A stretch of DNA of 64,000 nt from contig CAZGIH010000017.1 in the NCBI GenBank assembly GCA_964526195.1, positions 131,888 through 195,887 of the forward strand, given 5' to 3'. Under the pieces are notes generated by a model. The model was not told the origin of the DNA, did not search any database, and saw nothing but the letters and a program-made list of their open reading frames with translations. The position numbers and the translations under genes are program-made. Shown piece after piece: positions 2,624 through 36,490 of the stretch; position 1 is the first letter of the stretch, and each line of letters opens with the position of its first letter. The DNA comes from an uncultured Chromatiales bacterium. Its GTDB lineage: Bacteria; Pseudomonadota; Gammaproteobacteria; Poriferisulfidales; Poriferisulfidaceae.

Positions 2624-2938
2624 TCAAGACGCCTGTTTGGCCTTTTCCCTGGCTTCGAACGCCGCCATTTGCTCTGGAGTGGCCTCTTTCTGATACCGGG
2701 ACTTCCATTCGGCATATGGCATGCCGTAGACGATTTCCCGGGCTGCGTCATAATCCAGGGTCACGCCTCGCTCTTCTGCTGCGGCCACGTACCACTTGGA
2801 GAGACAGTTCCGGCAGAAGTCCGCCAAGTTCATCAAGTCGATATTCTGGACTTCGGGCTTGCTCCTCAGGTGCTCAACAAGACGCCGATAGACGGCCGCC
2901 TCGATCTCCTCGCGCTGATTCTCGGTTATTTCCGACAT
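2624..2938 (-). CDS. DUF1244 family protein
   Basis: 104 aa with the conserved DUF1244 pattern (NIDLMNLADFCRNCLSKWY...IVYGMPYAEWK). Confidence 0.6.
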   Translation of the reverse strand: MSEITENQREEIEAAVYRRLVEHLRSKPEVQNIDLMNLADFCRNCLSKWYVAAAEERGVTLDYDAAREIVYGMPYAEWKSRYQKEATPEQMAAFEAREKAKQAS

Positions 2939-3248
2939 TGCATTTGGATCCTTGAAAATTTCTTTGGGACTGTTTCAGTATACCCGCATACCAGTACCAC
3001 CCTATAAATTCGATATCCAATCAAATAAAGAAGTCAAGAATAGCCCCAATGGCATTGACTTATAGCGGCAAACCTTGCCGCAAGTAGGTTTCCGTCGCTA
3101 TTCAGGCATCGGCCCAACCCGTCGGAGATGCACTCTGTACCTCATTCGGCACCTTCCTTTACCAATAGGTTTATGCGGGGCTCGCGCACAGATGTGCCCG
3201 GATCGCCCCGAGTGCCAGAATGACAGTCAAGTACGAAGTTTAGATGAT

Positions 3249-3872
3249 GTTGCGGCACTCAATCTATGTGACTAAAATAGAATGAGCGGGTTATACTGGA
3301 ATCCCGTCGTTGCGGCTGGCCCTCAATCTCTAAGCGGCTAAAATTGCTCGCCATACACATGACGCCAAGGCACCGTTGCGGCTGGCCCTCAATCTCTAAG
3401 CGGCTAAAATTCGATTGTCCAGTTGATCGACCGCCAGGTGGTTGCGGCTGGCCCTCAATCTCTAAGCGGCTAAAATGATAAGGCTAATAAGCAACTAAAG
3501 CGGTTCGTTGCGGCTGGCCCTCAATCTCTAAGCGGCTAAAATGTGTGGAAGTTTGACATGACGCCCAAGCAAGTTGCGGCTGGCCCTCAATCTCTAAGCG
3601 GCTAAAATCCATGGGGATAATTACCATCCTCAATAATTGTTGCGGCTGGCCCTCAATCTCTAAGCGGCTAAAATAGGTTGACAAATAGACAGAAAGGTAT
3701 TTCAGTTGCGGCTGGCCCTCAATCTCTAAGCGGCTAAAATAAACGAAGGAGGAAGCAGTAATGGATCACCGTTGCGGCTGGCCCTCAATCTCTAAGCGGC
3801 TAAAATATTAGAAACCATGTTCCGTCAGTAGTCAATGTTGCGGCTGGCCCTCAATCTCTAAGCGGCTAAAAT
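3249..3872 (+). CRISPR. CRISPR array: 9 identical 36-bp repeats (GTTGCGGCTGGCCCTCAATCTCTAAGCGGCTAAAAT), 30-bp spacers, plus a degenerate 30-bp terminal repeat at 3249-3278
   Basis: Full repeats start at 3309, 3375, 3441, 3507, 3573, 3639, 3705, 3771 and 3837 (exact 66-bp period). A degenerate copy (gttgcggcactcaatctatgtgactaaaat) is followed by one more 30-bp spacer. The 36/30 geometry is typical of type II-C. Confidence 0.97.
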
Positions 3873-3881
3873 GCAACCACT

Positions 3882-3919
3882 GAAAGCCCTTGTTTTACAA
3901 GGGCTTTCCTTTTATCTTT
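3882..3919 (+). terminator. Rho-independent terminator between array and cas2 (10-bp stem gaaagccctt/aagggctttc, then T-rich tract)
   Basis: Perfect 10-bp inverted repeat with a 7-nt loop, followed on the + strand by cttttatcttt. It would stop array read-through into the convergent cas2. Confidence 0.6.
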
Positions 3920-3944
3920 ATCAGAATTATTCATACTGAAAGTC

Positions 3945-4289
3945 TCAAAAGAGGACTAGTTGGTCCAATTTTTTTTCACCACTTTCGCTTTTTCCGCCCA
4001 CGAAAGTGCGGGCATTAGCGTATTGTTTATCAGTAATTGTCATCATATGTACCTTGCCACGATTTGGCAAGGCTGAACACACCCTCTTCACTTGAGTTTC
4101 AACTGCCTCTTTGCTTTCGGCAAAACGTAAATAGACTGAAAATTGTGCCATCTCAAAGCCGTGGTCAAGCAAAAAATTTCGAAACTTCGTCGCTGCCTTA
4201 CGTTCAGCCTTTGTCCCTACGGGCAGATCAAACATGACATAAAGCCACATCATTCGATACCCGCTTAAAACTGGCCAATGTGTATTCAT
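3945..4289 (-). CDS. cas2: CRISPR-associated endoribonuclease Cas2 (type II)
   Basis: Motif MMWLYVMFDLP...ERKAATKFRNFLLDHGFEMAQFSVY matches type II Cas2. The start at MNTHW (4289) gives an ATGA overlap with the cas1 stop. The ORF-track upstream extension is rejected. Confidence 0.85.
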   Translation of the reverse strand: MNTHWPVLSGYRMMWLYVMFDLPVGTKAERKAATKFRNFLLDHGFEMAQFSVYLRFAESKEAVETQVKRVCSALPNRGKVHMMTITDKQYANARTFVGGKSESGEKKLDQLVLF

Positions 4290-5191
4290 TGTATTGTGCC
4301 TAACGGTCGCGTCCACCGGGGGAATTCTAATTTTTTGGCCTCTCCCGCATAGCAACGGGCAGCAGAAAGAGTCAAGTGGTGGAGGCATGTAGATATTGGG
4401 CTTGCACCAGTATCTGTATCCATGTCGTAAAAAAGAATCCGCGCAAGTTCTGGTTTTGTGTTTTTGTTTACACCAGTAGAACCCTCTTTCGCGAGATTGT
4501 AGACAAGCATATCTGCGGTTGGCCTGAATGGTTCCATTAGATCGTCGGCGAGGGCAAAGGAATTCCCACGTTGTCGGTGAGCTAAGCCCAAACTGGGGTG
4601 AAGTCCAGCACCCATAATTGCCCTAGCTACGCCCGCACGTAATACCGTATACGTGTAATTCAGCATTGCATTGACGCCCTCTGCATAGCGATCACGGCGA
4701 AAATCTTTGCCAAACAAAAGCGGCCAGTATCTACGTGCCGCTTGAGCCTCTATATTCTCTGGATCCCCGGAGCGTACGGAGCGAGCAAGACGATTGAATC
4801 CTTTATGCGTTGTTCCAACTGTTGCGAGAGTTATACCTTGTGCCTGGATTTTTGCAGAAACAATTTGAGCCCAAAGACGCTTACGCAGGGGCTTGGATGC
4901 TGACGCCTGGTCCGATATCCGCCCACCCTGTTCATAATGCCCGGACGCAGTCCAGAGAAAACCAGCCGGTCGATGATTCACACCACATACTACGAGAGGG
5001 ACACAGCGTTCGGTTAATGCAACTAAAAGACTGTTCGTATACGTAATGCCATGTGCACTTGCAATCACTGCTGCCACATCATCCAGTGGAACCCTCCCGA
5101 TCTCCTCGCCTTGTGATTCAATTGTAAGAAAGCCGCGAAACTTACTGATATGGTGGCCATCCTCGGCAATCTCTACAATTCGCCCGGTCAT
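4286..5191 (-). CDS. cas1: CRISPR-associated endonuclease Cas1 (type II)
   Basis: 301 aa Cas1-like protein. Its start overlaps the cas9 stop (TAATG). Confidence 0.9.
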   Translation of the reverse strand: MTGRIVEIAEDGHHISKFRGFLTIESQGEEIGRVPLDDVAAVIASAHGITYTNSLLVALTERCVPLVVCGVNHRPAGFLWTASGHYEQGGRISDQASASKPLRKRLWAQIVSAKIQAQGITLATVGTTHKGFNRLARSVRSGDPENIEAQAARRYWPLLFGKDFRRDRYAEGVNAMLNYTYTVLRAGVARAIMGAGLHPSLGLAHRQRGNSFALADDLMEPFRPTADMLVYNLAKEGSTGVNKNTKPELARILFYDMDTDTGASPISTCLHHLTLSAARCYAGEAKKLEFPRWTRPLGTIQ

Positions 5192-8100
5192 TAGCAGTGC
5201 TTTATCGGGAAAACTCGACCTATAGAATCAACACGTACAAGGCACGCACTTGCTGTCTTTAAGGTGGAATAACTTTTAATTTCGTAACGGAATAGATCGT
5301 CTGGGTCATTATGACGTTCGCCCAACGAACCTGCCTCGTAGTGAGGTGCGAGTTTCAGACGATTAGCCGAAGCATCCAAACTGCAAACTCTATAGATGGT
5401 TCGACCATTCCCAAAATCTGCCTCCACGAGATCGCCATTGTGTACCTTCATAACCAACTCGGCATTGGGATGTTTGTTGCGCCAGTTAGGTGTGAAGTTG
5501 GGTTGGTTGGCATCGAAGACAGTTACGCCTTCACCCAGCCATTTATCCTGCAATGAATAAATCTCAATGCGGTGATTGTCGCCAGCGGAATAGAGCTTAT
5601 AAAATCCATCGCCATGCTCAACTTTGTACACCGATTTTTCCGTTTTCAGTATTCGAATTCTGCGAATGCCGGAGCTTTCTCCAAATTCAGCTAATGCCTC
5701 CTTCAATTTATGACCAGCTCTTTTTGCGGCATCACGGATTTGTTGAAGATCCCGACGCAAAGAAGCATCATGTACGCGATCTATCTCACTATCTGTCAAC
5801 TCACTGATAGGTTTCCGGACAACAAGATTGTATTCTTTTCCTTCGATTGTCGCTTTAACCTCCCCGTAAGCTGTGCCTTCAAGTAGGGCTCCAGAAGTAA
5901 CGTGGATGTTGCTTTGTGCGTTAGGTGGAATTCCATGATCAGGCTTATGGCTAACAACCAATTTCTTCATTGAATTATCCAGTGCCTCCCAGTACCCCGA
6001 AAAAGGAATTGGGAAACTATTGTTGGGGAAAAGTCTCTCAAGATTCAATTCTTCGGAGCGACCTGATGCTTTTGATATCTGATCCAGCAACCCTATGTCA
6101 GTGCAGGCCAGAACAAACGCATCGACAGCGTGGTGTCTATGGTCTTTCCGATTTTTAATCTTTGTGCCACCTCCGGTTTGGATTGAAGGAATGGCACCAA
6201 GTCGCCACCGAGCTCGTAGCATCGCGGTAAGTCGTCCGGGAGAAGCATCGACACGTTTGCAGATATGCTCAAGATAAGTCTTTGCAAGGCGCGATACGTA
6301 CTGTGTGTCTGTTAGGTGTCGAGCTGCAAGGCCACCTTTCTCCTCAAAATCCTCCATGGCATCAGGAAAGAAGCGCCAAGCTTTTCTGGGAATAACCCGC
6401 TCAGCACGCTCAGCGATTTCAAGAAGTTTTTGGCCGTGCCATGCTTCAGCAGGTGCCTGGTTTAGTTTTTCCCGATTACTTTCACGTGTACACAACACCT
6501 TATTCATGAAACCGTCGTCAAGTGTGCGGGAATAAGGCAAAATATGATCTATTTCTATTTGATCACTGAACAGCGCGCACTTTGATATTTGTTCTCCCGT
6601 GTAGATGCACACTCGTTCATCTGGGGGGAGTTCGTGATACAGTCGCAGGCGAAGCCTGTTTGCATATGTGTCTTCTTCATTCAATGCATTGAGCTGGTCG
6701 CGGTTCCTGTCGTTCGCTTCTCTATTATCTTTGTTTTTCTTGTTTTCTTTTTGCTTACGCTCCTTACTCCACTTCAGTTCACGAGCTAGTTCAACCACAA
6801 TCCCATCTGGTGGGCCGTATGTCGCTATTAGCGCATTGATGATCTTGCGCAGTTGATTGAGTCCAATATGGACAGTCGGATTGGGCACTCTCCCTATCCG
6901 GTCCTGGCTCCCTTCTGGGGCAGATGGTCGAGAGATGACATGACGCGCAAGCACTTCACCATAGTATGGAAGTTTGGTCTGTTGATCGGGCCTCAGATCT
7001 GAGTGGTGTTCATCAATACGCTGGACAGCTTCGTCATAGGTTAAAGGTCGCTGATATATTTCTCCAGTCTCCGTATTCGTACATTCTTCCGATTCAGTTT
7101 CCATAACCCGGACAATATCACGCAACACTGAGCGGCCAAAGTTGCCGTGACCTTGAGGCAAACGCACATCAGAGATTTTCTCGGCCGCCTCCTGCTTCAG
7201 GTTAAATTTGTCTTGAAGCCACTGGTGAAGGCGTTCTTCATCCTCGTCAGACAAAAGACATTCTATAATCTCGTCTTTAGCCGTGCTGGTAAGTGAATCC
7301 CAAGCCTTTCCAAAAGAATTTTTTGCTCTTAGCTTGCTTGCAGTCTGATCCGATTGGAAGCCGTCGCGGCCTAAGCCCTCGTAGTTAAAACGTATGCCAT
7401 CCGGCAGTTGAAGTGCTTTCCTAAGAGCCTCGAATGCGACGACTCTTGATTGCCGCCGCTCCAGTACGGCCACAAGAGCATCGCGCTGGGGAAGAGTCAG
7501 GAAACGCTCCGGGGACCCGGGTCGAACAAGTCGTAGTTGGCACACGTCCTGAAGGATCCGGAATTTCTGAAAGAGCGGATGTGCCTTTGGCGTTCGCTCA
7601 CCCATATCAATTTCAATTCCCTGATACACAAAGACTTTGTTTTCGTCTGGACGCAATGTGCAACGTCCGACAATCTGTGGTTTAAGTGGCCTTTGCTCAA
7701 GGATCGTTTCCCTAATTTTTTCAAGCAATTGTTCAGTGAGAATATCTGGATAGTGAACTTTCTGCTCCGTCCAAATGCAATCAATCTCTTGCTCGACAAG
7801 TTCGCGTGTTGGATAAAAGTCATAGAGATTTTTGCTACCCTTAGATGTCGGCCGGAAGCGCACTGGCGATGGTGAGCCTCCGCCATTGTCATCCTTGCTT
7901 TTCTTGATTCGGTTTCCTTCTCTGTCGATGCGATACCCTTCCTTGTCTCTTCGGTGGCGATTAGCGAGAAATTCGCCAAGCGTCCGAAACTCTTGTTCCT
8001 CTACGATTTTCTCTTTGAGTGCTTGTGCTCCCTGCTTCATCGCACTTTTTTCATTATTATCTGCATCAGAGATCCGATTCGATTTAAATCCTCTTCGTTG

Positions 8101-8487
8101 ATTTATGTGGAACAAGGCACGACCGAGTTCAAACAAATCAAGCCGATGATCCAAAGCCCTGCAACGTAGCCAATAAGGATCAATTTTCTCAAGCTTTTTC
8201 CGCTCATCTTTATCACGAGGCATCAAGCCTGACTCGATCAAAATGGACATTAGACGATCTCGGCGGCGCAAAAAACGGTCCCGACGGCGGCGTGCACTGC
8301 GTGCGTCTCGACGATTTGCAGCCAAGGATGTCTTGGATTTCGGATCTTTTCCCGCTTCATCATTGGGGGTCAAAATGCGCACTCCCGCATCCAACACCCC
8401 CGAGGGGCGCTTATCCGCATCAAGCGTAACGGCACACCAACCAATAGAGTTGGTGCCCATATCCAAACCTAGTCGGTAAGGAGTCAT
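5191..8487 (-). CDS. cas9: Cas9 (type II-C, 1098 aa)
   Basis: RuvC-I at the N-terminus (GLDMGTNSIGWC), arginine-rich bridge helix (RRRRDRFLRRRDR), HNH (IDHILPYS...NKVLC), RuvC-III (HHAVDAFVLA). No csn2 or cas4 is adjacent. Lower GC than the flanking genes. Confidence 0.95.
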   Translation of the reverse strand: MTPYRLGLDMGTNSIGWCAVTLDADKRPSGVLDAGVRILTPNDEAGKDPKSKTSLAANRRDARSARRRRDRFLRRRDRLMSILIESGLMPRDKDERKKLEKIDPYWLRCRALDHRLDLFELGRALFHINQRRGFKSNRISDADNNEKSAMKQGAQALKEKIVEEQEFRTLGEFLANRHRRDKEGYRIDREGNRIKKSKDDNGGGSPSPVRFRPTSKGSKNLYDFYPTRELVEQEIDCIWTEQKVHYPDILTEQLLEKIRETILEQRPLKPQIVGRCTLRPDENKVFVYQGIEIDMGERTPKAHPLFQKFRILQDVCQLRLVRPGSPERFLTLPQRDALVAVLERRQSRVVAFEALRKALQLPDGIRFNYEGLGRDGFQSDQTASKLRAKNSFGKAWDSLTSTAKDEIIECLLSDEDEERLHQWLQDKFNLKQEAAEKISDVRLPQGHGNFGRSVLRDIVRVMETESEECTNTETGEIYQRPLTYDEAVQRIDEHHSDLRPDQQTKLPYYGEVLARHVISRPSAPEGSQDRIGRVPNPTVHIGLNQLRKIINALIATYGPPDGIVVELARELKWSKERKQKENKKNKDNREANDRNRDQLNALNEEDTYANRLRLRLYHELPPDERVCIYTGEQISKCALFSDQIEIDHILPYSRTLDDGFMNKVLCTRESNREKLNQAPAEAWHGQKLLEIAERAERVIPRKAWRFFPDAMEDFEEKGGLAARHLTDTQYVSRLAKTYLEHICKRVDASPGRLTAMLRARWRLGAIPSIQTGGGTKIKNRKDHRHHAVDAFVLACTDIGLLDQISKASGRSEELNLERLFPNNSFPIPFSGYWEALDNSMKKLVVSHKPDHGIPPNAQSNIHVTSGALLEGTAYGEVKATIEGKEYNLVVRKPISELTDSEIDRVHDASLRRDLQQIRDAAKRAGHKLKEALAEFGESSGIRRIRILKTEKSVYKVEHGDGFYKLYSAGDNHRIEIYSLQDKWLGEGVTVFDANQPNFTPNWRNKHPNAELVMKVHNGDLVEADFGNGRTIYRVCSLDASANRLKLAPHYEAGSLGERHNDPDDLFRYEIKSYSTLKTASACLVRVDSIGRVFPIKHC

Positions 8488-8537
8488 TGCGGAATTGGTC
8501 GCACAGCTATAGCGGAACCGGTTAGTGTAATATACAT

Positions 8538-8640
8538 AACTAAGGGTAGCCGCTTAGAGATTGAGGGTCACCCGTTAACAAGCCCTTCGGGGCATAAAAT
8601 TTGAGCCGGGTCGGGCAACTGATCCGGCTCACTTAATTTG
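8538..8640 (+). ncRNA. Predicted tracrRNA (anti-repeat plus two hairpins and a U-tract), divergent from cas9
   Basis: 8548-8567 AGCCGCTTAGAGATTGAGGG is a 20/20 complement of repeat positions 11-30. It is followed by a GCCC-UUCG-GGGC hairpin (8582-8593), a gagccgg...ccggctc hairpin (8603-8630) and uuaauuu. A possible extended -10 (tgTAATAT, about 8526-8533) lies upstream. Confidence 0.65.
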
Positions 8641-8759
8641 GGTAGGTGTTAGATGCGAACGGTGAAAGGTTTAACTTCGGTCATTGAAATCTCAAGCCTC
8701 GTACTCCGAACAGAGCCATAATGCGCCAAAATGAGCAGATTAGCTACTGCCGCGATCTC

Positions 8760-9344
8760 ATGCCCACGTCTCTCGTTCGACCTCCTCCGCTGACCGGCAT
8801 GATCCTTGCCGGCGGCATGGCACGCCGCATGGGCGGACAGGACAAGGGGCTGATCCCCTACCAAGGGCGCCCATTGATCGCCCATGTCCTTGAGCGCCTC
8901 GAACCGCAAGTTCAGGCCATTCTGATCAACGCCAACCGCAGTCACGACCAGTACGCGCAGTTCGGTCACCCCGTGATCGCGGATGCGGAAGACGGTTTTC
9001 TAGGGCCGCTTGCCGGCATTCTCGCCGGATTGCGCGCCGCTCGAACGGAACTGCTGCTCTGCGTCCCCTGCGACAGCCCGGAGGTCGGCCCGAACCTAGC
9101 GGCCAAGCTTGCCTCTCCTTTTGCGCAGGCAGGAACCCGGATCGCCGTTGCAAGTTGCGCCGGACGCCTGCAGCCGGTCTTTGCAGTGCTGCACACTGAT
9201 CTTTCGGATGCCCTGGACGATTTTCTTCGTCACGGCGGGCGTAAAATTGACGAATTCTATGGCGCGCAGGGCTTCGAGGAAGTCCCTTTCGAAAACCCCG
9301 ATGAATTTCGAAACATCAACACCCACGAGGAATTGACGCTCTGA
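8760..9344 (+). CDS. mobA: Molybdenum cofactor guanylyltransferase MobA
   Basis: LAGGMARRMGG...DKGL motif. The length from M14 matches E. coli MobA (194 aa). Confidence 0.85.
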   Translation: MPTSLVRPPPLTGMILAGGMARRMGGQDKGLIPYQGRPLIAHVLERLEPQVQAILINANRSHDQYAQFGHPVIADAEDGFLGPLAGILAGLRAARTELLLCVPCDSPEVGPNLAAKLASPFAQAGTRIAVASCAGRLQPVFAVLHTDLSDALDDFLRHGGRKIDEFYGAQGFEEVPFENPDEFRNINTHEELTL

Positions 9345-9859
9345 TGGACTCCCAATCTCCCACCCTTTTGGGTTTCGCAGCATTCAGTGGAACCGGGAAA
9401 ACCGAGTTACTGACCCGATTGGTGCCAATCCTGGTGGAACAGGGGCTGCGAATCGGCATGGTCAAACATGCCCACCACGCGTTCGACGTGGATCAACCGG
9501 GAAAGGACAGCTACCGGCTGCGCAAGGCGGGAGCCAAGGAAATGTTGATTTCTTCGGGCCGTCGCTGGGCTTTGATGCATGAACTGGGCGAGGATGAAGA
9601 GGAAATGACCCTAGCCGAACTTCTGCCGAAGCTGGATGCCGAATCACTTGATCTGATCCTGGTGGAAGGCTTCAAACGCGAAGCTTTCCCCAAAATCGAG
9701 CTGTGCCGACCGGATTTGGGGCATCCGTACCTGTATCCGGATGATTCCAACATCATCGCCTTGGCGACCGATGCACCCCCGCCATCCGGATTGACACTGC
9801 CGCATCTCGACCTGAACGATCCCCCTGCCATCGCGGCTTTTATCCGGACGCTGCTCTAA
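9344..9859 (+). CDS. mobB: Molybdopterin-guanine dinucleotide biosynthesis adapter protein MobB
   Basis: P-loop GTGKTEL, 171 aa. ATGA-type overlap with the mobA stop. Confidence 0.85.
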   Translation: MDSQSPTLLGFAAFSGTGKTELLTRLVPILVEQGLRIGMVKHAHHAFDVDQPGKDSYRLRKAGAKEMLISSGRRWALMHELGEDEEEMTLAELLPKLDAESLDLILVEGFKREAFPKIELCRPDLGHPYLYPDDSNIIALATDAPPPSGLTLPHLDLNDPPAIAAFIRTLL

Positions 9860-19368: not shown

Positions 19369-20469
19369 CTATTCGAACAGGTTCGCCTGGTCGGACGGCA
19401 CACGAAACCGATCCGTCCGCAGCGAGCGGCGCTGCCCGTTCAATCCATGCTGTTTACAGGCCAGCGTGAAACGCTGACGAAGCAGACGAGCAAATTCTCC
19501 CTGCCCGCTCAAGCGGCGTCCGAATTCGGGATTGTAGTCAACCCCTCCATGGAGACTCCGAACTGTATTCATGATTCTTTCGGCCCGCTCCGGAACGTGT
19601 TGCTGAAGCCATTCCCGAAACAGTTGCTTCAATTCATGTGGTAGACGCAGGACTACGTACCCGGCACAGTAAGCGCCCTCTTCTGCCACGACCTTGACGA
19701 TGTCCTCCAGTTCGCCGTCGTTCAGGAATGGAATCATTGGAGCCGCCAAGACGCCAACCGGGATCCCCGCCTGCGACAACGCCCCCACCAGCGCAATCCG
19801 CGAATGAGGCGCCCCGGCGCGAGGTTCGAGAGTTCGGCTGAGTTTTGCATCCAGCGTCGTGACGGAGACAACCACTTCTGCGAGACCATCCTGGGCCATG
19901 TCCTGCAGGATGTCCATATCCCGCTCAAGCAGGGGGGACTTGGTAATAACCGAGACTGGATGGCGAAATTCCCGCAGAACTTCGAGGATGGATCGGGTGA
20001 TCTTGAGTTGACGTTCGACCGGCTGGTAGGCATCCGTGTTGTAGCCGAGACCAATCGTCCCACATCGATAGTGGGGAGCCCGAAGTTCACGTTCCAGGAT
20101 TTCCGCTGCATTCGTCTTACAGAAAATCTGGGTTTCGAAGTCCAAACCAGGCGACAGCCCTAAGTAAGCGTGATTGGGCCGCGCGAAGCAGTATGCACAG
20201 CCATGCTCACAGCCGCGGTAGGGATTGATAGAGCGGTCCAGCGCAATGTCAGGTGATTTGTTGTAATTGATCAGGCTTTTTGCCGGAGCGTCGAAGTAGC
20301 GTGTCGCAAGGGTTCCTTCCTCGTATTCGCGGCCATCATGCTGGAATTCGATTTGTTCCAGCTCATAGCGTCCCGGCGGGTTGCTGATCGCACCACGGCC
20401 TTTTCGGTAGGTCCACTGGACAGGGCTTTCGGTTGGATCCACGGTTAAGCCATTCCCTATTTCTGACAC
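19369..20469 (-). CDS. Radical SAM protein, PA0069 / spore-photoproduct-lyase-like DNA repair family
   Basis: CEHGCAYCF radical-SAM cysteine triad; 366 aa. Confidence 0.7.
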   Translation of the reverse strand: MSEIGNGLTVDPTESPVQWTYRKGRGAISNPPGRYELEQIEFQHDGREYEEGTLATRYFDAPAKSLINYNKSPDIALDRSINPYRGCEHGCAYCFARPNHAYLGLSPGLDFETQIFCKTNAAEILERELRAPHYRCGTIGLGYNTDAYQPVERQLKITRSILEVLREFRHPVSVITKSPLLERDMDILQDMAQDGLAEVVVSVTTLDAKLSRTLEPRAGAPHSRIALVGALSQAGIPVGVLAAPMIPFLNDGELEDIVKVVAEEGAYCAGYVVLRLPHELKQLFREWLQQHVPERAERIMNTVRSLHGGVDYNPEFGRRLSGQGEFARLLRQRFTLACKQHGLNGQRRSLRTDRFRVPSDQANLFE

Positions 20470-20674
20470 ATTTCAATCGTAATCAATCTCTATCCCGACA
20501 GGGATTAATATACGATCTTACCCAAGGAGAGATATGAGTATTTGTTCTGGTTTGCTTTTTTCTCTAACTCCATTGCCAGCAGCTATGTTTAGAATTTTCC
20601 TCTATATGGTTAGAACCCTTTCTCTCTCCCAGAAAAAACCATACATTCCTACGAAAACCACGTGGCGAATTATG

Positions 20675-21076
20675 TTAACCCCACCATTTGGCTAAATGTC
20701 CTATGCCCCAGACAAGAAGGCTTATGAACAAGACAATTGGGAGCATCCGAACCACAATGTAAAAGGTAAAGTCGAAAGGCTCCCATGCGTCCTCTAAAAT
20801 TTCTTTTAAAGGCTCCGGCAGTCGATCCCACCAAGCCTTTATTCTGCCTATGACGGAAGCAAGCGTCGGCAGTGGCTTCTTGAGCTTCGGGTATATAGCC
20901 CACAATAAAATCAGGGCACCAATACTGACACCGAGGTAATTCCACCAGTGCCACTCCGGTCCTATCATGCCAAGATTGCCCAGCGTGTTTTGCAGAGAGT
21001 TCACCACCTCTGGCCAACTTAAAGTAATCCATAAGGCTCCGAAGAGGATAGAGCCAAGCGTTGCTCGCGGGCGCAT
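20675..21076 (-). CDS. Small hypothetical membrane protein (low-GC island)
   Basis: 133 aa with TM helices and Trp-rich loops. Preferred over the overlapping 20670..21080 frame because of its hydrophobicity pattern. Confidence 0.45.
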   Translation of the reverse strand: MRPRATLGSILFGALWITLSWPEVVNSLQNTLGNLGMIGPEWHWWNYLGVSIGALILLWAIYPKLKKPLPTLASVIGRIKAWWDRLPEPLKEILEDAWEPFDFTFYIVVRMLPIVLFISLLVWGIGHLAKWWG

Positions 21077-21146
21077 ACAATTATTTTACTTCCCTACAAT
21101 AATTAAAGAAAAATTTTGGGAATTATGTAGCAAAATCTGCAAGGGC

Positions 21147-21175
21147 TTGACTTTTCCCAGAAAATAAGATATAAT
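21147..21175 (+). promoter_or_regulatory. Consensus sigma70 promoter for the transposase (TTGACT-17-TATAAT), followed by a 9-bp perfect palindrome at 21178-21204
   Basis: TTGACT 21147-21152 and TATAAT 21170-21175 with a 17-bp spacer. tctgcaaat-N9-atttgcaga lies between the -10 and the ATG and repeats the inner IR sequence (atctgcaa). Confidence 0.6.
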
Positions 21176-21213
21176 AATCTGCAAATAAGGAAATCATTTG
21201 CAGAGAATAAGAA

Positions 21214-22137
21214 ATGAGCAAGAGAAAAGCAGAAACCATCAGCGTCACCCAGTTGCTGAAAATGTTTTCAACCGAGCGCAAGGCCGTGGAATGGCTGGAA
21301 CAGGCTCGATGGGGTGGCACTCCGGTTTGCCCGCATTGCGGTGGCATCGAGAACATTAGCAAGCCGAAGAGCAAGCCGTTCACCTACTGGTGCAAGCCTT
21401 GCCGTAAGAACTTCACGGTCAAGACCGGCACCATCATGCACGCATCCAAGACTTCCACGCAGAACTGGGTGGTTGCCATCTATTCGGTGCTGACTGCCCG
21501 CAAGAGCGTGAGCAGTCTCCAGTTGAGCAAGGAACTGGGCGTACAGCAACGCACTGCTTGGTACATGCTTCACCGGATCCGCGAAGCTTGCCAGCAGGGA
21601 GACTTCAAACTGTTCGGTTCGGTTGAAGTGGATGAGACTTACATCGGCGGCCTGGAAGACAATAAGCATGAGAGCAAGAAACTTCATGTCGGCGGCGGCG
21701 GGGGCGGCAAGCAGGCCGTCTTGGGTATGCGTGAACGCGGTGGCAAGGTGAAGGCCATGCCGATTGCCGACACCACCAAGTCCACCTTGCAGGGCAAGGT
21801 GCATGAGAATGTCCGACCGGGTTCCACGATATACACGGACGAGAATTCGTCTTACACGGGTATCGCGCACCGGCATTACACCGTCAATCATTCAGCGAAG
21901 GAATACGTGAACGACATGGCGCACACCAATGGCGTGGAATCAGTTTGGGCAGTCCTCAAGCGCGGCGTGAATGGAACCTTCCACCATGTCAGCAAGAAGC
22001 ACCTGCATCGTTACCTGAACGAGTTCACCTTCCGTCTCAATGAGGGGAATTGCGAGATTGATACAATCGACCGCATGGATTCCCTGGTCAAGGGAATGGG
22101 CGGTAGGCGCATTCCCTACAAGGAACTGACAGCGTAA
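21214..22137 (+). CDS. IS1595-family transposase (N-terminal zinc ribbon + DDE domain)
   Basis: 307 aa: CPHCGG...CKPCRK zinc ribbon followed by a DDE-type core. Confidence 0.85.
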   Translation: MSKRKAETISVTQLLKMFSTERKAVEWLEQARWGGTPVCPHCGGIENISKPKSKPFTYWCKPCRKNFTVKTGTIMHASKTSTQNWVVAIYSVLTARKSVSSLQLSKELGVQQRTAWYMLHRIREACQQGDFKLFGSVEVDETYIGGLEDNKHESKKLHVGGGGGGKQAVLGMRERGGKVKAMPIADTTKSTLQGKVHENVRPGSTIYTDENSSYTGIAHRHYTVNHSAKEYVNDMAHTNGVESVWAVLKRGVNGTFHHVSKKHLHRYLNEFTFRLNEGNCEIDTIDRMDSLVKGMGGRRIPYKELTA

Positions 22138-22176
22138 GGGTGAATCATGCAAATTGTATAACTATGGGGATTGCCT

Positions 22177-22497
22177 ATGAAAACACTAATAACTACAACA
22201 ATTTCAGTCATGGCCTTGGCCACTCTCTTAATTTCTGGGCATGCCATGTCATATGATGAATTTGAGGGGAATATTCTTCATGAACGTTGCAAGAAAGGAG
22301 ACACGATAGGTCACAGGCGGATGGATATTTTGTTAGGGAAAGAAGATGAAATGTATCAGGCGCTAAAAATGGAGAGTGACCCGAAACAGATAAAAGCCTA
22401 TCTGGAAGCGATCATTGCACTTGACAAAAAAGGTATAGTTCTCGCTGAGGGGACGGATCGGTTTTGTGCATTAACTAATCCCCCGGCGAATAAGTGA
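22177..22497 (+). CDS. Small secreted hypothetical protein (IS passenger)
   Basis: Signal peptide MKTLITTTISVMALATLLISGHA. AT-rich. Confidence 0.4.
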   Translation: MKTLITTTISVMALATLLISGHAMSYDEFEGNILHERCKKGDTIGHRRMDILLGKEDEMYQALKMESDPKQIKAYLEAIIALDKKGIVLAEGTDRFCALTNPPANK

Positions 22498-22604
22498 AAG
22501 ACCGGTCACAATGACTGGCCTTTCTTTAGGGAATTATACGGAAGAATCCGAAAAACCCACCTGTTTCTAGGGATTTATGTAGGTAACTTGACAGGAGAAG
22601 CTTC

Positions 22605-23015
22605 ATGAACAACAAAGCTCAACGCATACTCGAAAATGTTCGACAAATCTTTGCGGTAACGTTGGGGTGGATTGCTTGGCTCCTTATTTTGGTTTGGATA
22701 GGAGCGATAACCATAACTGCCGAACAACACGGCATTTCTTTATTCGGGCCACTCCTTTTAACTACAGTTATTTTGGGCGGGATTTTGGGTGGAATATTAT
22801 TTGTCGGTCTGGCATATTATGCTTTCCCAAAAACAAAAAGAAAATTTCCATTCATTACTGCTTCTATCTGGGCCACGCTCGCTATGATTGTAGGCATAAA
22901 TAATATGGTGATTGATAATAGTAGCGGGCCTGATTACTTTACCTATGGGGCAAGCACGATAATTACATTATTAATTTTTTATGTCTTAAATAGATACCAC
23001 ACCGCCCGGTCCTAA
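22605..23015 (+). CDS. Hypothetical 4-TM membrane protein (IS passenger)
   Basis: 136 aa hydrophobic protein with GGILGGILF repeats. AT-rich. Confidence 0.4.
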   Translation: MNNKAQRILENVRQIFAVTLGWIAWLLILVWIGAITITAEQHGISLFGPLLLTTVILGGILGGILFVGLAYYAFPKTKRKFPFITASIWATLAMIVGINNMVIDNSSGPDYFTYGASTIITLLIFYVLNRYHTARS

Positions 23016-23151
23016 ATCGAACGTCTTTATCTGTCAGCCACGCCTGTCAAATTATCTATATAGTTCCCGGCCTTTCTCTATTGACAAAGGTACAAGATGG
23101 TGTTTAGCATATTGCAATAGGCTGTGCCAGCATAAACAGGTCTAGGGTGAT

Positions 23152-23388
23152 ATGCCAAGAGACATGGAATTAATTAGGATGATTCTGATCTATGTTCGGA
23201 ATCATGCAAAATCTGGTTCACTTGTTTTCCCTTCATTCGCTGGTTATGAAAAGGGGATGGTTGATTATCACGTCATGCTGTGCGAACAAGCCGGGTATCT
23301 CCAGTTGAATGAGGAAACGCTGGACGAAGAACGTCTAATCCTGAACTTGACTTGGGCTGGACACGAATTTCTATCGAAGGGGAAATAA
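23152..23388 (+). CDS. DUF2513 family protein (IS passenger)
   Basis: The N-terminus MPRDMELIRMILIYV matches the DUF2513 consensus (MKRDMDLIRKILL). Confidence 0.5.
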   Translation: MPRDMELIRMILIYVRNHAKSGSLVFPSFAGYEKGMVDYHVMLCEQAGYLQLNEETLDEERLILNLTWAGHEFLSKGK

Positions 23389-23776
23389 TCCCCCTCTTCA
23401 ATGTAATTCCCCTTCCATGGTCAAGAAACTAGACCCCGCCAACCATGAGCCGGTTTCACTGAAAGACTTTCAGGATGCGCTGAAGAGCATCCTGCTGAAA
23501 CCGATAGAGAAAAAGACCCGTTGGGAGAACCGGGAGCCGACCATGAAGGAGTTGTCTGTGAGATTCAAGTTGAAGCGGCGGAAATGACTTTTGCAGATTT
23601 TGCTACATAATTCCCAAAATTTTTAAATTCCATCAAGAAATAATATAGAAGAAAGTGCATGAAATCTACGCTTTTATCTAGTTAAAAGTGTATCATTAAT
23701 ACAGTAATATCTAGGATAAATTGCCGTAAATAAAAATTTATGATAAAATATTTTTGGTAATTCAACATTTTCATTC

Positions 23777-25084
23777 ATGGAAAGACTCGCATACAAAGAG
23801 CTTGTTAAATGGAAAAATCAAGCTCAGCGCAAGCCCGTTTTGATTGACGGGGCGCGCCAAACTGGAAAAACTTATCTTGTCGAAGATCTTTTTGGTGCTC
23901 AAGAATTTCGTCGCGTCCATAAACTTGATTTTCGTGCCAATCCAGAACTAGCCCGCATTTTCGAAGATGGCCTCTCCCCTGCCCAAATTATTGCTAATGC
24001 GGAAATAATGTTAGGCGAACGTATCGCTCCAGAACATGATTTACTGTTCTTCGACGAAGTTGGAGACTGCCAACAGGCAGTAGACTCACTTAAATATTTT
24101 GCTGAGGATATGCCGACCGGCTATATCTGTGCTACTGGATCAAATATCGGGTTGTTAGATTCTTTTCCTGTCGGAAAGGTTGAAAGTCTCGAGTTGTTTC
24201 CGTTATGTTTCGAGGAATTTTTACGAGAATTGGCATCCGAACCAGTACTAGACGCATTCATCCAGAACCGTAGAGGAGCCGCAATTCACCAAAAACTTTG
24301 GCAATACCTATGCGATTATTACTTTGTTGGGGGTATGCCAGAGGCAGTGAGTGCTTGGTCTCATGAAGTTCTCAGCATCCATGATCGAATTGGAATGGTC
24401 GAGGCAACCCACAAAAATATCGTTAGAGGATTTTGCCGTGATTTCGGGAAATATTCCGGTGGCGTACAGGCAATGCACATCGAAGCTGTGTTCCGAAACA
24501 TCCCAATGCAATTGTCTAAAACTATGGATGAATCCGTCAAACGCTATCGCTTTGGTGATGTGATTTCTCGGAAAAAACGTTATCAGGACCTGCGTGGGCC
24601 TATAGACTGGCTCGAAAAAACGCGCCTAGCGTGGAAATCACATCCCATTAGGTCAAGCCCAACGATTCCTCTAGCTCCTTTATGCAAAGAGAATGACTTC
24701 AAACTTTATTTATTCGATGTTGGAATTCTCGGCCATCTCCTAGGACTCAGATATGCCGACCACAAAGGTCAGATGATAGATTACAAGGGATTCATCGCCG
24801 AGAACTTTTTTTTGGTTGAATATCGCTCGCGCATCGGGTATCCGGTCTACAGTTGGGCGCAGAGAGACGCTGAAATCGAATTTCTGCACCGGGATAAGAA
24901 AGGTGTCATTATTCCCGTGGAAGTAAAGAGCGGTAAGCGCACACGGGCGCGAAGCCTTGGATCATATATCGGACGATACCAACCACAGCATGCGGTCAAA
25001 TTCGCCAATATTCAAAGATCGACACAAAGTGGGATTATTTCTACCTGGCCTTTGTACGATGTGCAGTTTTTGCGAAATCTTTAG
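23777..25084 (+). CDS. AAA+ ATPase, COG1373 (AAA_14 + DUF4143)
   Basis: Walker A GARQTGKT and Walker B LLFFDEV; 435 aa. Low-GC gene with an AT-rich upstream region. Confidence 0.75.
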   Translation: MERLAYKELVKWKNQAQRKPVLIDGARQTGKTYLVEDLFGAQEFRRVHKLDFRANPELARIFEDGLSPAQIIANAEIMLGERIAPEHDLLFFDEVGDCQQAVDSLKYFAEDMPTGYICATGSNIGLLDSFPVGKVESLELFPLCFEEFLRELASEPVLDAFIQNRRGAAIHQKLWQYLCDYYFVGGMPEAVSAWSHEVLSIHDRIGMVEATHKNIVRGFCRDFGKYSGGVQAMHIEAVFRNIPMQLSKTMDESVKRYRFGDVISRKKRYQDLRGPIDWLEKTRLAWKSHPIRSSPTIPLAPLCKENDFKLYLFDVGILGHLLGLRYADHKGQMIDYKGFIAENFFLVEYRSRIGYPVYSWAQRDAEIEFLHRDKKGVIIPVEVKSGKRTRARSLGSYIGRYQPQHAVKFANIQRSTQSGIISTWPLYDVQFLRNL

Positions 25085-33433: not shown

Positions 33434-33641
33434 GCCGGTAGCGCTGGTATTCCTCTTCCGACAGTCCGCGCGCCTCTTCTTCCAGCAAGACCGGAATGTC
33501 GTCGCGCACCGGGTAAGCCAGGCGCGCCGACAATGAAATCAATTCCTGCTGCTCACGGTCGTACAGCAGCGGGCCCTTGGTGACCGGGCAGACAAGGATA
33601 TCCAATAGTCTTTTGTCCATCTGTTCCTGACTCCTGCTCAT
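33423..33641 (-). CDS. ycaR: Trm112/YcaR family protein
   Basis: [14 protein letters not shown]...L...DIPVLL motif. The start ATG at 33641 overlaps the lpxK stop (ATGA). Confidence 0.7.
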
Positions 33642-36490
33642 GTCCTCGCTTCGGCATCCAAGGAATCCAGTGCCTTCGCCTTTCGATTCTCCTCGACGAC
33701 ACGTTGCGCGCTGCCGATGATTTCCTCGGCAACAACCGGTTCCAGCGCTACGTCGACCTCCAAAGAATACCACCGTTCACGGGCAAAACGCTCGCACTTG
33801 ACCGCATCCTTGGGCGTCATGATTACCGCGTGACCATCCGCAAAGTCGAGTTGTCCGGCCCGGAAAGCGTGGTGATCCTCGTAGAGGTGCGGAATCGCGT
33901 CGATCCCGGCGCTGGCCAAGGATTCCAGGAACCGGTGTGGATTCCCGATCCCGCAGACCGCATGCACGGTCTGCCCCGCAAAGCTGGACAGCGGGGTCGT
34001 GCTGCCGTCAAGCAAAGAGCGCAGGTGTTTCACCTGCAAGTCAAACCGGTGTTCTCCTGGCTCCGGATCTCCTCCGTGCACCAAGATCCAATCGGCCAAA
34101 CGTGCACGCCCGAGCGGCTCTCTCAACGGCCCGGCAGGCAGGCACAAGCCGTTGCCGTGCCGGCGTTTGCCGTCCACCACCAGGATCTCGATCTCCCGCG
34201 ACAAGCCCAAATGCTGCAACCCGTCATCCGACAAGATGATGCTGACGGTATGCCGCTCGCAAAGCGCCTGCGCGGCAGCAACCCGGTCCGGGCCTGCAAA
34301 CACGGGACAGCCCGTCTGTGCCGCAATCAGAACCGCTTCCTCCCCGACCTCATCGGGGCTGGTCGCGGCATCAACCTCTCGGGGCCAGGTTGGACTGTCG
34401 CCCCGGTAGCCCCGGCACACGATTCCGACCGACACCCCCAAGCTTCGAAGCCGGAGCGCAAGCCAGACCACCAGAGGGGTTTTCCCGGTGCCTCCGACGC
34501 TCAGGTTGCCGATGACTGCCACAGGCACGGGCAAGGCGGCCGGCCGATTCAGCCAACGACGCCAGAGCCGTCGCAGGAACACGCCGGTGCGATACAGCCA
34601 ACTCAGCGGTCGCAAGGCCCACACCCAGCGGCTATCCTCGTACCAGACAGTCTCAGCAAAACGCGTCACCCAGGACTGATGCCGGGTGCTCTCTTCCTCC
34701 AGCAGTTCCCCGCGGCGGGGCGGGCGTTCTTCGACATCTCCCGTATCCTGGAATTGATGCTGATAGAGCTTTCTGTAGACCTGATTCCTCTGAATCAACT
34801 CTTCATGCGTGCCCTGTTCGACGACCTCGCCTTGATCCAGGACGACGATCCGGTCTGCACGTTCCACCGTCGACAATCGATGCGCGATGATCAGGGTGGT
34901 GGAAACTTCCATGATCTTGTCTAAGGCCTCCTGCACATACCGCTCGGACTCGCTGTCCAGCGATGAGGTCGCTTCGTCCAGGATCAGGATCGGTGCTCGC
35001 TTGTACAGGGCTCGGGCCAAGGCCAGGCGCTGTCGCTGACCCCCAGAGAGCTGTACACCCCCTTCCCCGATGATGGTCTCCAGGCCTTGTGGCAGGTGAG
35101 CCACAAATTCGTCGACGTGCGCACTGCGCAGCGCCAACTCCAGGTCATGCTGCTGATCCGGATCCACTCCATAGGTGATGTTGTTGCGCACCGTGTCGTT
35201 GAACAGCACCACGTTCTGTCCCACATAGCTGATCAGCCCCCGCAGATTGGACAACTGCAGGTCGTTGATCGGAATGTCGTCGATCCGGATTTCTCCACTC
35301 TGCGGGGCGTAAAAACGCGGCAACAGGTTGGCGAGGGAAGACTTGCCGGAACCGGAACGCCCGACCAAGGCCACGGTCTCGCCACGTCGGATCGTCAGCG
35401 AGACATTGCGAAGCGCTTCGCGATCCGTGTTGCGGTAACGCAAACTGATCCGGTCATAGACGATCGAATGCTGCAGATCCTGCTTGGAATGTTCGCCCTG
35501 ATCCTGTTCCACCGGGGTATCCAGCATCTGGAAAACCTGTTGTCCGGCGGCGATGCTCTGTTGCAGCCGGGTGTTGACCTGCACCAGATTGCGTGCCGGA
35601 GCCAGCAGCATCAGCATGGCGAACATGAACGATACGAACCCACCGACCGTAATGGTGCTGAGCACTCCTTCCAGCGTCACCAGGTAGACGATGCCGGCCC
35701 AGGCCAGCCCGACCAGCAGCATGATGATCGAAGAGACCAAGGCCGCCATCTGTTGCGTGCGAACCTGTCGCTTCCGGAAATGCTCGGTCGTCTCATCGAA
35801 ACGTGTTTTTTCCATCGTCTCGGCCTGGAACACCTTCACGACCCGGTAACCTTGAATTACCTCCTGGGCGTTCTGCACGGTCGCAGTAAGCGCCTCCATC
35901 ATGCGGTGGCTAAGCTTCCGGACTCTTCGGTTGCTGCTTGGAATCAGCCAGGCAAACACCGGCACGGCCGCCAGGAAGGCAACCGTCAGGATCCAACTCA
36001 CGTACAGCATCCAGCCGACCAGGCCGATCACCATCAGGCTGTCCCGGATCAGGATAGTGAGGCTTTTCGACGCCGCCGTTGTCACGCCCTCGACGTGGCT
36101 GGTGATGCGCGCCAGGAAATCGCTGGAAGCCGTATGGTCGTGGGTTTCCGCTGGAAATTCGAGCAGGCGTGCAAACATTTTCCGCCGCAGGTCCCGGACC
36201 AGGCGCGCACCAATCTGCGCCATGCAGGAGGCGCTGAGGTACGAGCCGACCGCTCGCAGCACGAAAATCCCGATCAACGCCAGCGGTACCCAGCGGATGA
36301 CGTCCGGCTGCTGCTCGACGATCGCGCCATCCAGGATCGGTTTCATCAGCGCCGACAATGCGGGGCCTGTTGCAGCCTCCATCGCCATGCCGAGCACCGC
36401 CAATGTCAGGATGCCGCTCTGACCTTGCAGGGCAAGCCGCAGCAACTGCCGATAAATGTCCATGCCGGAACGGCGCGTAATCTCGTTCAT
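33638..36490 (-). CDS. msbA-lpxK: Fused lipid A ABC exporter MsbA (N-terminal, about 590 aa) + tetraacyldisaccharide 4'-kinase LpxK (C-terminal, about 330 aa), single 950-aa ORF
   Basis: ABC transmembrane and ATPase motifs ([23 protein letters not shown]). These run through a roughly 30-aa linker with no stop and no Met into the LpxK N-terminus (LRPLSWLY...[13 protein letters not shown]). Confidence 0.85.

Follow-up and report, generated by a model that had tools for sequence, protein, structure and literature searches.

The locus analysed here raises the question of how the crRNAs of a compact CRISPR-Cas9 array are made: from one promoter ahead of the array or from promoters carried by the repeats, in which direction relative to the cas genes, and with what stop where array and cas operon meet. 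The original prediction proposed Neisseria-style promoters within the repeats, transcription towards cas2, and a terminator between the last repeat and cas2. Taking the evidence below together, we consider it fairly likely that the array is read on the plus strand from -10 elements borne by its repeats, with starts inside the spacers and a stop before cas2.

By its gene content, the locus is a complete type II-C CRISPR-Cas9 system. The minus strand carries cas2 (3945-4289, 114 aa; TIGR01573 and PF09827; stop codon at 3945-3947), a cas1 of the type II (NMENI) class (4286-5191, 301 aa; TIGR03639, 236 bits) and cas9 (5191-8487, 1098 aa), whose product matches TIGR01865 over residues 4-1090 with 603 bits and further matches the profiles PF13395 (HNH), PF18541 (RuvC_III) and PF18470. 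With cas9 taken to begin at 8487, in line with the consensus N-terminus, the RuvC-I motif MTPYRLGLDMGTNSIGW is recovered. The exact Cas9 sequence is also found in the Logan assembly of SRR16090827. Neither csn2 nor cas4 is present, and cas9 is separated from the array by cas1 and cas2 only. The locus is flanked by a DUF1244 gene and by mobA/mobB and forms an island of 47-48% G+C within the window (the whole 64,000-nt stretch of DNA that was analysed), the rest of which is mostly at about 57-63%. The nearest Cas9 relatives are 55-68% identical, and the few named ones come from Alphaproteobacteria or from Pseudomonadota MAGs; the named related loci are mostly alphaproteobacterial. The housekeeping genes for Mfd, MsbA, FtsK, SdhA and GltA point to an uncultured gammaproteobacterium as the host. 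The low-GC island, the mostly alphaproteobacterial named kin of Cas9 and the gammaproteobacterial housekeeping genes together suggest that the locus was probably acquired horizontally.

The array lies downstream of cas2 and on the strand opposite to the cas operon. It was delimited by an array search and oriented by the tracrRNA, and it comprises nine identical 36-nt repeats and eight spacers of 30 nt (3309-3872, plus strand in the crRNA sense). The repeat, GTTGCGGCTGGCCCTCAATCTCTAAGCGGCTAAAAT, recurs nine times with no mismatch and a period of 66 nt, where none was expected in shuffled sequences. At the cas-distal, oldest end of the array, alignment to the consensus repeat revealed a degenerate extra repeat, R0 (3249-3278, plus strand; GTTGCGGCACTCAATCTATGTGACTAAAAT), of 30 nt. 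R0 begins 60 nt upstream of repeat 1 and differs from the consensus by an internal deletion of 6 nt and several substitutions. Between R0 and repeat 1 lies the oldest spacer (3279-3308, plus strand), likewise 30 nt long, with the 66-nt register maintained, which brings the array to ten repeats and nine spacers. No further decayed repeat was found 66 nt upstream of R0. A comparison of the spacers with phage and plasmid collections returned no match, so that neither a PAM nor an independent check of orientation could be derived from them.

The direction of the array was deduced from the polarity of the tracrRNA and the direction of the terminator. Rfam searches at gathering thresholds matched a tRNA only, with no tracrRNA or CRISPR family match. 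An anti-repeat, folding (z = -4.4) and homologous tails in 43 loci define a tracrRNA at 8540-8641 (5' end approximate), on the plus strand and divergent from cas9. Its anti-repeat (8547-8579, plus strand) pairs with repeat positions 1-32 and is followed on the same strand by a small hairpin (8582-8593) and by a terminator hairpin of 13 bp (8602-8631) with a T-rich tail that extends to 8641. The duplex of repeat and anti-repeat has a predicted energy of -55.7 kcal/mol and contains a continuous run of 24 bp. In 43 related loci, the anti-repeat agrees in its relative strand and in almost every case sits directly upstream of cas9, and the homologous tail reads GTTAACAAG ... GCAC(A/C)AAATG ... followed by a G+C hairpin and a T run. 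No promoter emerged from a scan of the surroundings of the tracrRNA and of the start of cas9. To our knowledge, the layout of type II tracrRNAs is universal, with the anti-repeat 5' and the hairpins and terminator 3'. Here this layout is valid only if the tracrRNA is read on the plus strand, which places the crRNA on the plus strand as well, running from GTTGC to AAAAT and towards cas2. When read antisense to cas9, each of the 57 distinct related repeats has the form GTTGC.... On these structural grounds, we assign transcription of the array to the plus strand, where it runs towards cas2 and converges with that of cas9-cas1-cas2. The direction originally predicted is thus borne out by the polarity of the tracrRNA and by its layout in the 43 loci, and published transcription of II-C arrays is likewise opposite to the cas genes.

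With the strand settled in this way, the 3' end of the repeat becomes the candidate promoter element. As predicted, every repeat ends in the -10-like hexamer TAAAAT: on the plus strand, it lies at 3339-3344 in repeat 1, at 3405-3410, 3471-3476, 3537-3542, 3603-3608, 3669-3674, 3735-3740 and 3801-3806 in repeats 2-8, and at 3867-3872 in the last, cas2-proximal repeat; R0 carries it at 3273-3278, as judged from its sequence. For the nine repeats, the assignment draws on the repeat copies themselves, on the TAnnnT kept in the family and on the precedent of C. jejuni. The placement had to be corrected, however. The hexamer had been put 7-10 nt before each spacer and the transcription start inside the repeat, whereas TAAAAT forms the final 6 nt of each repeat and abuts the spacer, so that the predicted starts fall about 5-9 nt inside each spacer and outside the repeats.

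TAAAAT agrees with TATAAT at five of six positions, including the A at -11 and the T at -7. A match of at least 5/6 with A2 and T6 has a chance of p ~0.003 at one fixed position, and the nine hexamers count as one observation because the repeats are identical. The three bases ahead of the hexamer are GGC (GGCTAAAAT), so that the G at -14 is present and the T at -15 absent, which leaves half of an extended -10 TG. Within the repeat, the best -35 at a distance of 16-17 bp reaches 3/6. The sequence TTGCGG at repeat positions 2-7 was rejected as a -35 because its spacer of 23 bp is too long. A generic sigma-70 scan did not call the repeats, since it demands a -35. Upstream of the array, no convincing candidate for a leader promoter was found: the plus-strand hits at 3220-3248 and 3268-3297 score only 9/12, and their hexamers overlap the degenerate repeat R0 or a spacer in part, which excludes them as conserved features.

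Stronger evidence than this single observation comes from the family of related repeats, which shows which bases are retained. We collected 80 related loci, which yielded 57 distinct 36-nt repeats, and counted bases per position; as these repeats share ancestry, the counts overstate independence. The 3' end follows the pattern G-C-T-A-n-n-n-T, with G29 in 53/57, C30 in 52/57 and both T31 and A32 in 57/57 repeats. Position 36 is T in 51 repeats and C in the other six, and positions 33, 34 and 35 are nearly free (0.09, 0.37 and 0.59 bits). TAnnnT stands at this offset in 51/57 repeats, whereas every other offset yields it in 0-2. In promoter coordinates, the conserved bases are -14, -12, -11 and -7 and the free ones -10 to -8. 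The information of the sigma-70 -10 element is greatest at -12, -11 and -7, and the observed distribution matches that profile. Repeat positions 1-7 are likewise near-invariant.

Pairing with the tracrRNA fails to explain the 3'-most bases. Although nearly all loci pair positions 12-28 with the tracrRNA, the sequence of this stretch varies freely. The tracrRNA also pairs with the conserved GCTA. For positions 33-36, the paired fraction of the loci is 0.33-0.60, compared with about 0.375 for random sequence when G-U pairs are allowed, with position 35 alone falling at the random level; the sequence conservation of T36 clearly exceeds what pairing would require. The quality of the hexamer is uneven across the family: only 18/57 relatives agree with TATAAT at five or more of its six positions, 15/57 reach 3/6 at most, and TG precedes the hexamer in 23/57. 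Promoter strength, if any, would therefore vary widely among these loci. We conclude that the TAAAAT at the repeat end probably acts as the -10 element of a promoter. What stands of the proposed Neisseria-style promoter is the conserved -10 pattern and the hexamer known from C. jejuni; the TGn extension is half present in the window (GGC), and the -35 match is 3/6.

R0 adds a further observation to this argument. Despite its decay, its 3' end, CTAAAAT, is intact, while its duplex with the tracrRNA amounts to -20.1 kcal/mol versus -55.7 kcal/mol for the consensus repeat. Extra cas-distal repeats with a degenerate 5' part and an intact 3' part occur in the window and in the related loci L005, L009, L015, L036, L056 and L068. 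Decay of the 5' part with retention of the 3' part fits the published finding that mutations in extra repeats concentrate in the first 15 nt (Feussner et al. 2025, PMC12080349). Since the cas-distal repeat is no integration site and needs no tracrRNA binding, the retention of its 3' end leans to the promoter reading; it is supportive only, as a neutral boundary effect could give the same picture.

On the other side of the array, the leader between the last repeat and cas2 (3873-3944, plus strand), on whose side II-C arrays gain their new spacers, was assigned from the literature on II-C polarity and from family motifs at fixed positions. It contains a putative intrinsic terminator in the crRNA sense (3882-3919, plus strand), which was recognised by a terminator scan, by folding and by conservation in the family. 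Its hairpin GAAAGCCCTTGTTTTACAAGGGCTTTC (3882-3908) starts 9 nt after the last repeat and has 12 pairs, six of them G-C, and a loop of 3 nt; the T tract CTTTTATCTTT follows at 3909-3919, directly 3' of the stem. On the transcribed strand there is thus a G+C-rich stem-loop with a T tract, the stem being followed by CTTTTATCTT. The hairpin folds at -18.5 kcal/mol with z = -5.4. A stable hairpin likewise forms within the 52 nt that follow the last repeat in 54 of the 57 related loci (median z = -5.2 versus shuffles), whereas a control segment inside cas2 gives a stable fold in only 6/57. The stem sequences differ among loci, and CG/GC exchanges preserve the pairs among 16 close relatives. Strict terminator-like sites were counted in 25/57 loci in the crRNA sense and in 6/57 in the cas sense, compared with 2.5 in shuffles, and this excess lends independent support to the direction of the array and to a stop ahead of cas2. 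The strong hairpin that had been predicted between the last repeat and cas2 is therefore real, and it is conserved in the family.

Some features of this leader point beyond termination. In distant relatives, the hairpin is longer and the T tract often missing, and several leader bases occupy fixed positions relative to the repeat, namely GAT (+2-4), an A (+13, in 54/57) and YTG (about +19-21). The missing T tracts and the fixed bases suggest that the hairpin may do more than terminate, for example mark the integration end. A kinship of the leader hairpin with the tracrRNA tail, with which it shares AAGCCCTT in the window, was considered and rejected, as the mean similarity within loci is 5.8 versus 5.9 between loci. 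We found no description of the leader hairpin in the literature searched, the scope of which did not extend to the primary Neisseria paper. It is conceivable, though in our view unlikely, that the conserved hairpin belongs to the II-C leader of this Cas9 clade as an element not described before, which both stops convergent transcription and marks the integration end for Cas1-Cas2, with GCTAnnnT serving sigma-70 as well as the integrase. If this dual-role reading were true, the junction of array and leader would encode promoter and adaptation signals together.

The conservation of the repeat end may also be read in another way. The array might be transcribed as one long pre-crRNA from a cas-distal promoter and cut by tracrRNA and RNase III, with GCTAnnnT marking the leader-proximal repeat boundary for recognition or cleavage by the Cas1-Cas2 integrase and its likeness to a -10 element incidental; we regard this as possible, if doubtful. 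II-C spacers are acquired at the last repeat, beside position 36 (PMC12080349), so that Cas1-Cas2 could impose the same conservation on the repeat end. Repeat ends are in general the most conserved parts, and here both ends are, as the near-invariant positions 1-7 illustrate. The absence in the window of the T of the TG motif and of a good -35 fits this explanation, as do the poor hexamers of the 15 relatives at 3/6 or below, and a long pre-crRNA could draw on the two weak promoter-like sites at 3220-3248 and 3268-3297 and on the 24-bp duplex with the tracrRNA, a good substrate for RNase III. Against an integrase signal stand, however, the conservation at exactly -14, -12, -11 and -7 with freedom at exactly -10 to -8 and the experimental precedent with the identical hexamer in C. 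jejuni (PMC3656092), and in at least seven loci the extra cas-distal repeat keeps its 3' end although it is no integration site. The upstream sites, in turn, reach only 9/12, with hexamers partly in R0 or a spacer. Integrase recognition and promoter function are compatible and not mutually exclusive.

Two other explanations concern the locus as a whole. If the array were a 3' extension of cas9-cas1-cas2 on the minus strand, TAAAAT would have no role, and the hairpin would terminate the cas operon. The array does lie directly downstream of cas2, and the hairpin at 3882-3908 is nearly symmetrical (AAAGCCC...GGGCTTT) and forms on both strands; in the cas sense, however, it is followed by AGTGGTTGC, which is no T tract, and the terminator-like sites of the family favour the crRNA sense by 25 to 6. 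Such an array would need a minus-strand tracrRNA with its hairpins 5' and its anti-repeat 3', running into cas9, against the type II layout, whereas the window and the 43 homologous tracrRNAs show the anti-repeat 5' and a T-tailed terminator, divergent from cas9. With published II-C arrays also running opposite to the cas genes, we consider the minus-strand explanation extremely improbable. It is likewise improbable, if less extremely so, that the locus is an inactive relic whose repeat promoters and terminator are unused. The lack of any protospacer match in phage and plasmid collections and the position of a low-GC island in a foreign host would fit a relic; missing protospacers, however, are expected for an uncultured lineage, the nine repeats are identical, cas9, cas1 and cas2 are full-length, intact open reading frames with strong family scores, and tracrRNA and terminator are intact.

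Based on the plus-strand, repeat-borne promoter model, for which we infer promoter activity, start positions and termination in vivo from the anatomy, pairing and conservation described above, we propose the following hypothetical sequence of events: (i) TAAAAT, with the G at -14, would most likely serve as the -10 element for a housekeeping sigma factor, and RNA polymerase would start about 5-9 nt inside every 30-nt spacer; (ii) the products would be spacer-repeat units with a 5'-triphosphate and a guide of some 22-25 nt; (iii) the tracrRNA would pair with repeat positions 1-32, and RNase III would probably trim the 3' side; (iv) transcripts reaching the array end would stop at 3882-3919, together with those started by the last repeat, whose TAAAAT would fire into the leader just ahead of the hairpin, and this stop would shield cas2 from antisense transcription. 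Given the continuous 24-bp run of repeat and anti-repeat, the 3' ends of the crRNAs are probably still produced by RNase III. For C. cellulolyticum, II-C crRNAs with 23-26 nt of spacer sequence have been reported, and a 30-nt spacer shortened by 5-9 nt would give a guide of about 21-25 nt, close to this length. According to this scenario, R0 would yield no useless crRNA, as it is unable to pair with the tracrRNA, and it could still drive the oldest spacer together with repeat 1, as it retains TAAAAT.

The locus is thus a new example of a known arrangement, that of the Neisseria/Campylobacter type, and no new mechanism. Repeat-borne promoters are the textbook expectation for a II-C array, and the only contradiction was the error in spacing of the original prediction. 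If confirmed, the model would add an uncultured gammaproteobacterial host and a Cas9 clade with mostly alphaproteobacterial named members to the II-C systems with one promoter per spacer, and it would favour an ancestral origin and general occurrence of this arrangement in II-C, beyond Neisseria and Campylobacter. For users of the 1098-aa Cas9, it sets in practical terms the crRNA strand, the likely guide length (about 22-25 of the 30 nt in a spacer) and the tracrRNA. Of the elements described, the hairpin conserved family-wide between array and cas2 alone may be new, and it bears on how convergent transcription of array and cas genes is kept separate.

Several published systems can be compared with this arrangement. 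The housekeeping -10 consensus of Caulobacter sigma-73, given as GCtANAWC where it is cited in PMC13004042, shares a GC-TA core with the repeat end of the family, GCTAnnn(T/C), found in 48/57 repeats. Among the six repeats that end in C, two match the consensus, as quoted there, exactly, one of them from a Novosphingobium MAG. In contrast, only 13/57 repeats fit GCTANAW[CT], and the host of the window is no alphaproteobacterium, so that the comparison with the consensus in this quoted form is one of resemblance and not a test. A closer framework is provided by Feussner et al. (2025, PMC12080349), who describe each II-C repeat as having its own promoter and spacers as being acquired at the last repeat. 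R0 corresponds to one of three published strategies of ecrRNA avoidance, in which a mutated first repeat weakens tracrRNA pairing; that study, however, analysed the region upstream of the array and reported no hairpin or terminator downstream (PMC12080349). Repeat-internal promoters have also been noted for C. cellulolyticum and are now regarded as a general feature of II-C.

The two established cases are those of N. meningitidis and C. jejuni. In N. meningitidis, the repeat reportedly ends in TGCTACAAT, with the full TG, and RNase III is said to be dispensable. According to the passages of PMC5965381 and PMC7038990 that refer to Zhang et al. 2013, each repeat carries a promoter, and its terminal nine nt resemble an extended -10 element. 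As far as these passages describe it, the N. meningitidis system shares with the window an array transcribed opposite to the cas operon, a cas1 of the NMENI class, and a repeat that starts with GTTG and ends in ...GCTAnAAT, whereas the clade of the window's Cas9 has mostly Alphaproteobacteria among its named members. For C. jejuni NCTC11168, dRNA-seq and primer extension located primary starts at spacer position 5 (Dugar et al. 2013, PMC3656092), driven by a -10 box in the repeat that precedes each spacer, and tracrRNA and RNase III make the 3' end of the crRNA (PMC3656092). This bacterium is an AT-rich epsilonproteobacterium, whereas the host of the window is a gammaproteobacterium of about 60% GC; the C. 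jejuni hexamer is preceded by TGG, which completes the TGn of an extended -10, in contrast to the GGC of the window, and the two loci differ in that the window's tracrRNA lies upstream of and divergent from cas9. Nevertheless, the likeness extends to the minimal set of cas9, cas1 and cas2 and to a 36-nt repeat, GGTAAAAT, in which the same TAAAAT abuts a 30-nt spacer (PMC3656092).

When the leader (window 3873–3944) was compared with the first ~50 nt past the last repeat, in the crRNA sense, of the 80 related type II-C loci (L001–L080), a stable hairpin beginning no more than about 13 nt past the repeat was found in 54 of 57 related loci, with a median z of -5.2. Compensatory changes are present in the stems, and a T tract accompanies about half of the hairpins. 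Several leader bases also keep a constant distance from the last repeat, namely GAT at +2–4, A at +13 (54/57) and YTG at +19–21. The hairpin could serve as a terminator, as a leader/integration signal, or as both.

The opposite, cas-distal end of the array carries the oldest ('extra') repeat (3249–3308 region), whose 5' part is degenerate or truncated and whose 3' part is retained, including the -10-like end, and its duplex with the tracrRNA amounts to -20.1 kcal/mol, down from -55.7 kcal/mol. Extra repeats with the same 5' decay and 3' retention lie at the cas-distal array ends of six related loci (L005, L009, L015, L036, L056 and L068). Read-in transcription from this side is unlikely, because the adjoining gene, which encodes a DUF1244 protein of 104 aa (2624–2938, minus strand), is divergent from the array and points away from it. 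As a separate observation, the Ancylobacter locus L017 contains a second, unrelated CRISPR array (6836–7330, ~0.7 kb upstream of cas9) with a 32-nt repeat, GTTTCGATCCACGCCCCCGCGAAGGGGGCGAC, and a period of 67 nt.

The cas island (~2940–8700) has a G+C content of 47–48%, against mostly ~57–63% in the rest of the window. Named members of the nearest clade of its Cas9 are mostly Alphaproteobacteria, whereas the housekeeping genes in the window are gammaproteobacterial, and the island lies between the molybdenum-cofactor biosynthesis genes moeB (1853–2617) and mobA/mobB (8721–9859). Together, these features point to horizontal acquisition. A second low-G+C patch at 20000–25000 (0.42 at 22001–24000, flanks 0.51) may be a further acquired island. 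Elsewhere in the window, a single 950-aa ORF (33638–36490, minus strand) matches MsbA over residues 22–582 and LpxK over residues 630–916; it appears to be a fusion of the lipid A exporter with tetraacyldisaccharide 4'-kinase.

Public gene calls for the window's Cas9 (P0001, L081; start region at window 8460–8487, minus strand) place its start at an internal Met, giving 1089 aa, which costs the protein the Asp of its RuvC-I motif. Read from the ATG at 8487 (minus strand), Cas9 begins MTPYRLGLDMGTNSIGW, in agreement with the family consensus. In six related loci (L017, L021, L051, L056, L062 and L064), the best anti-repeat match is on the cas9 strand rather than divergent, ~200–350 nt upstream of cas9. 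This points to a tracrRNA gene that is inverted in these loci, or else to an anti-repeat match that was wrongly chosen.
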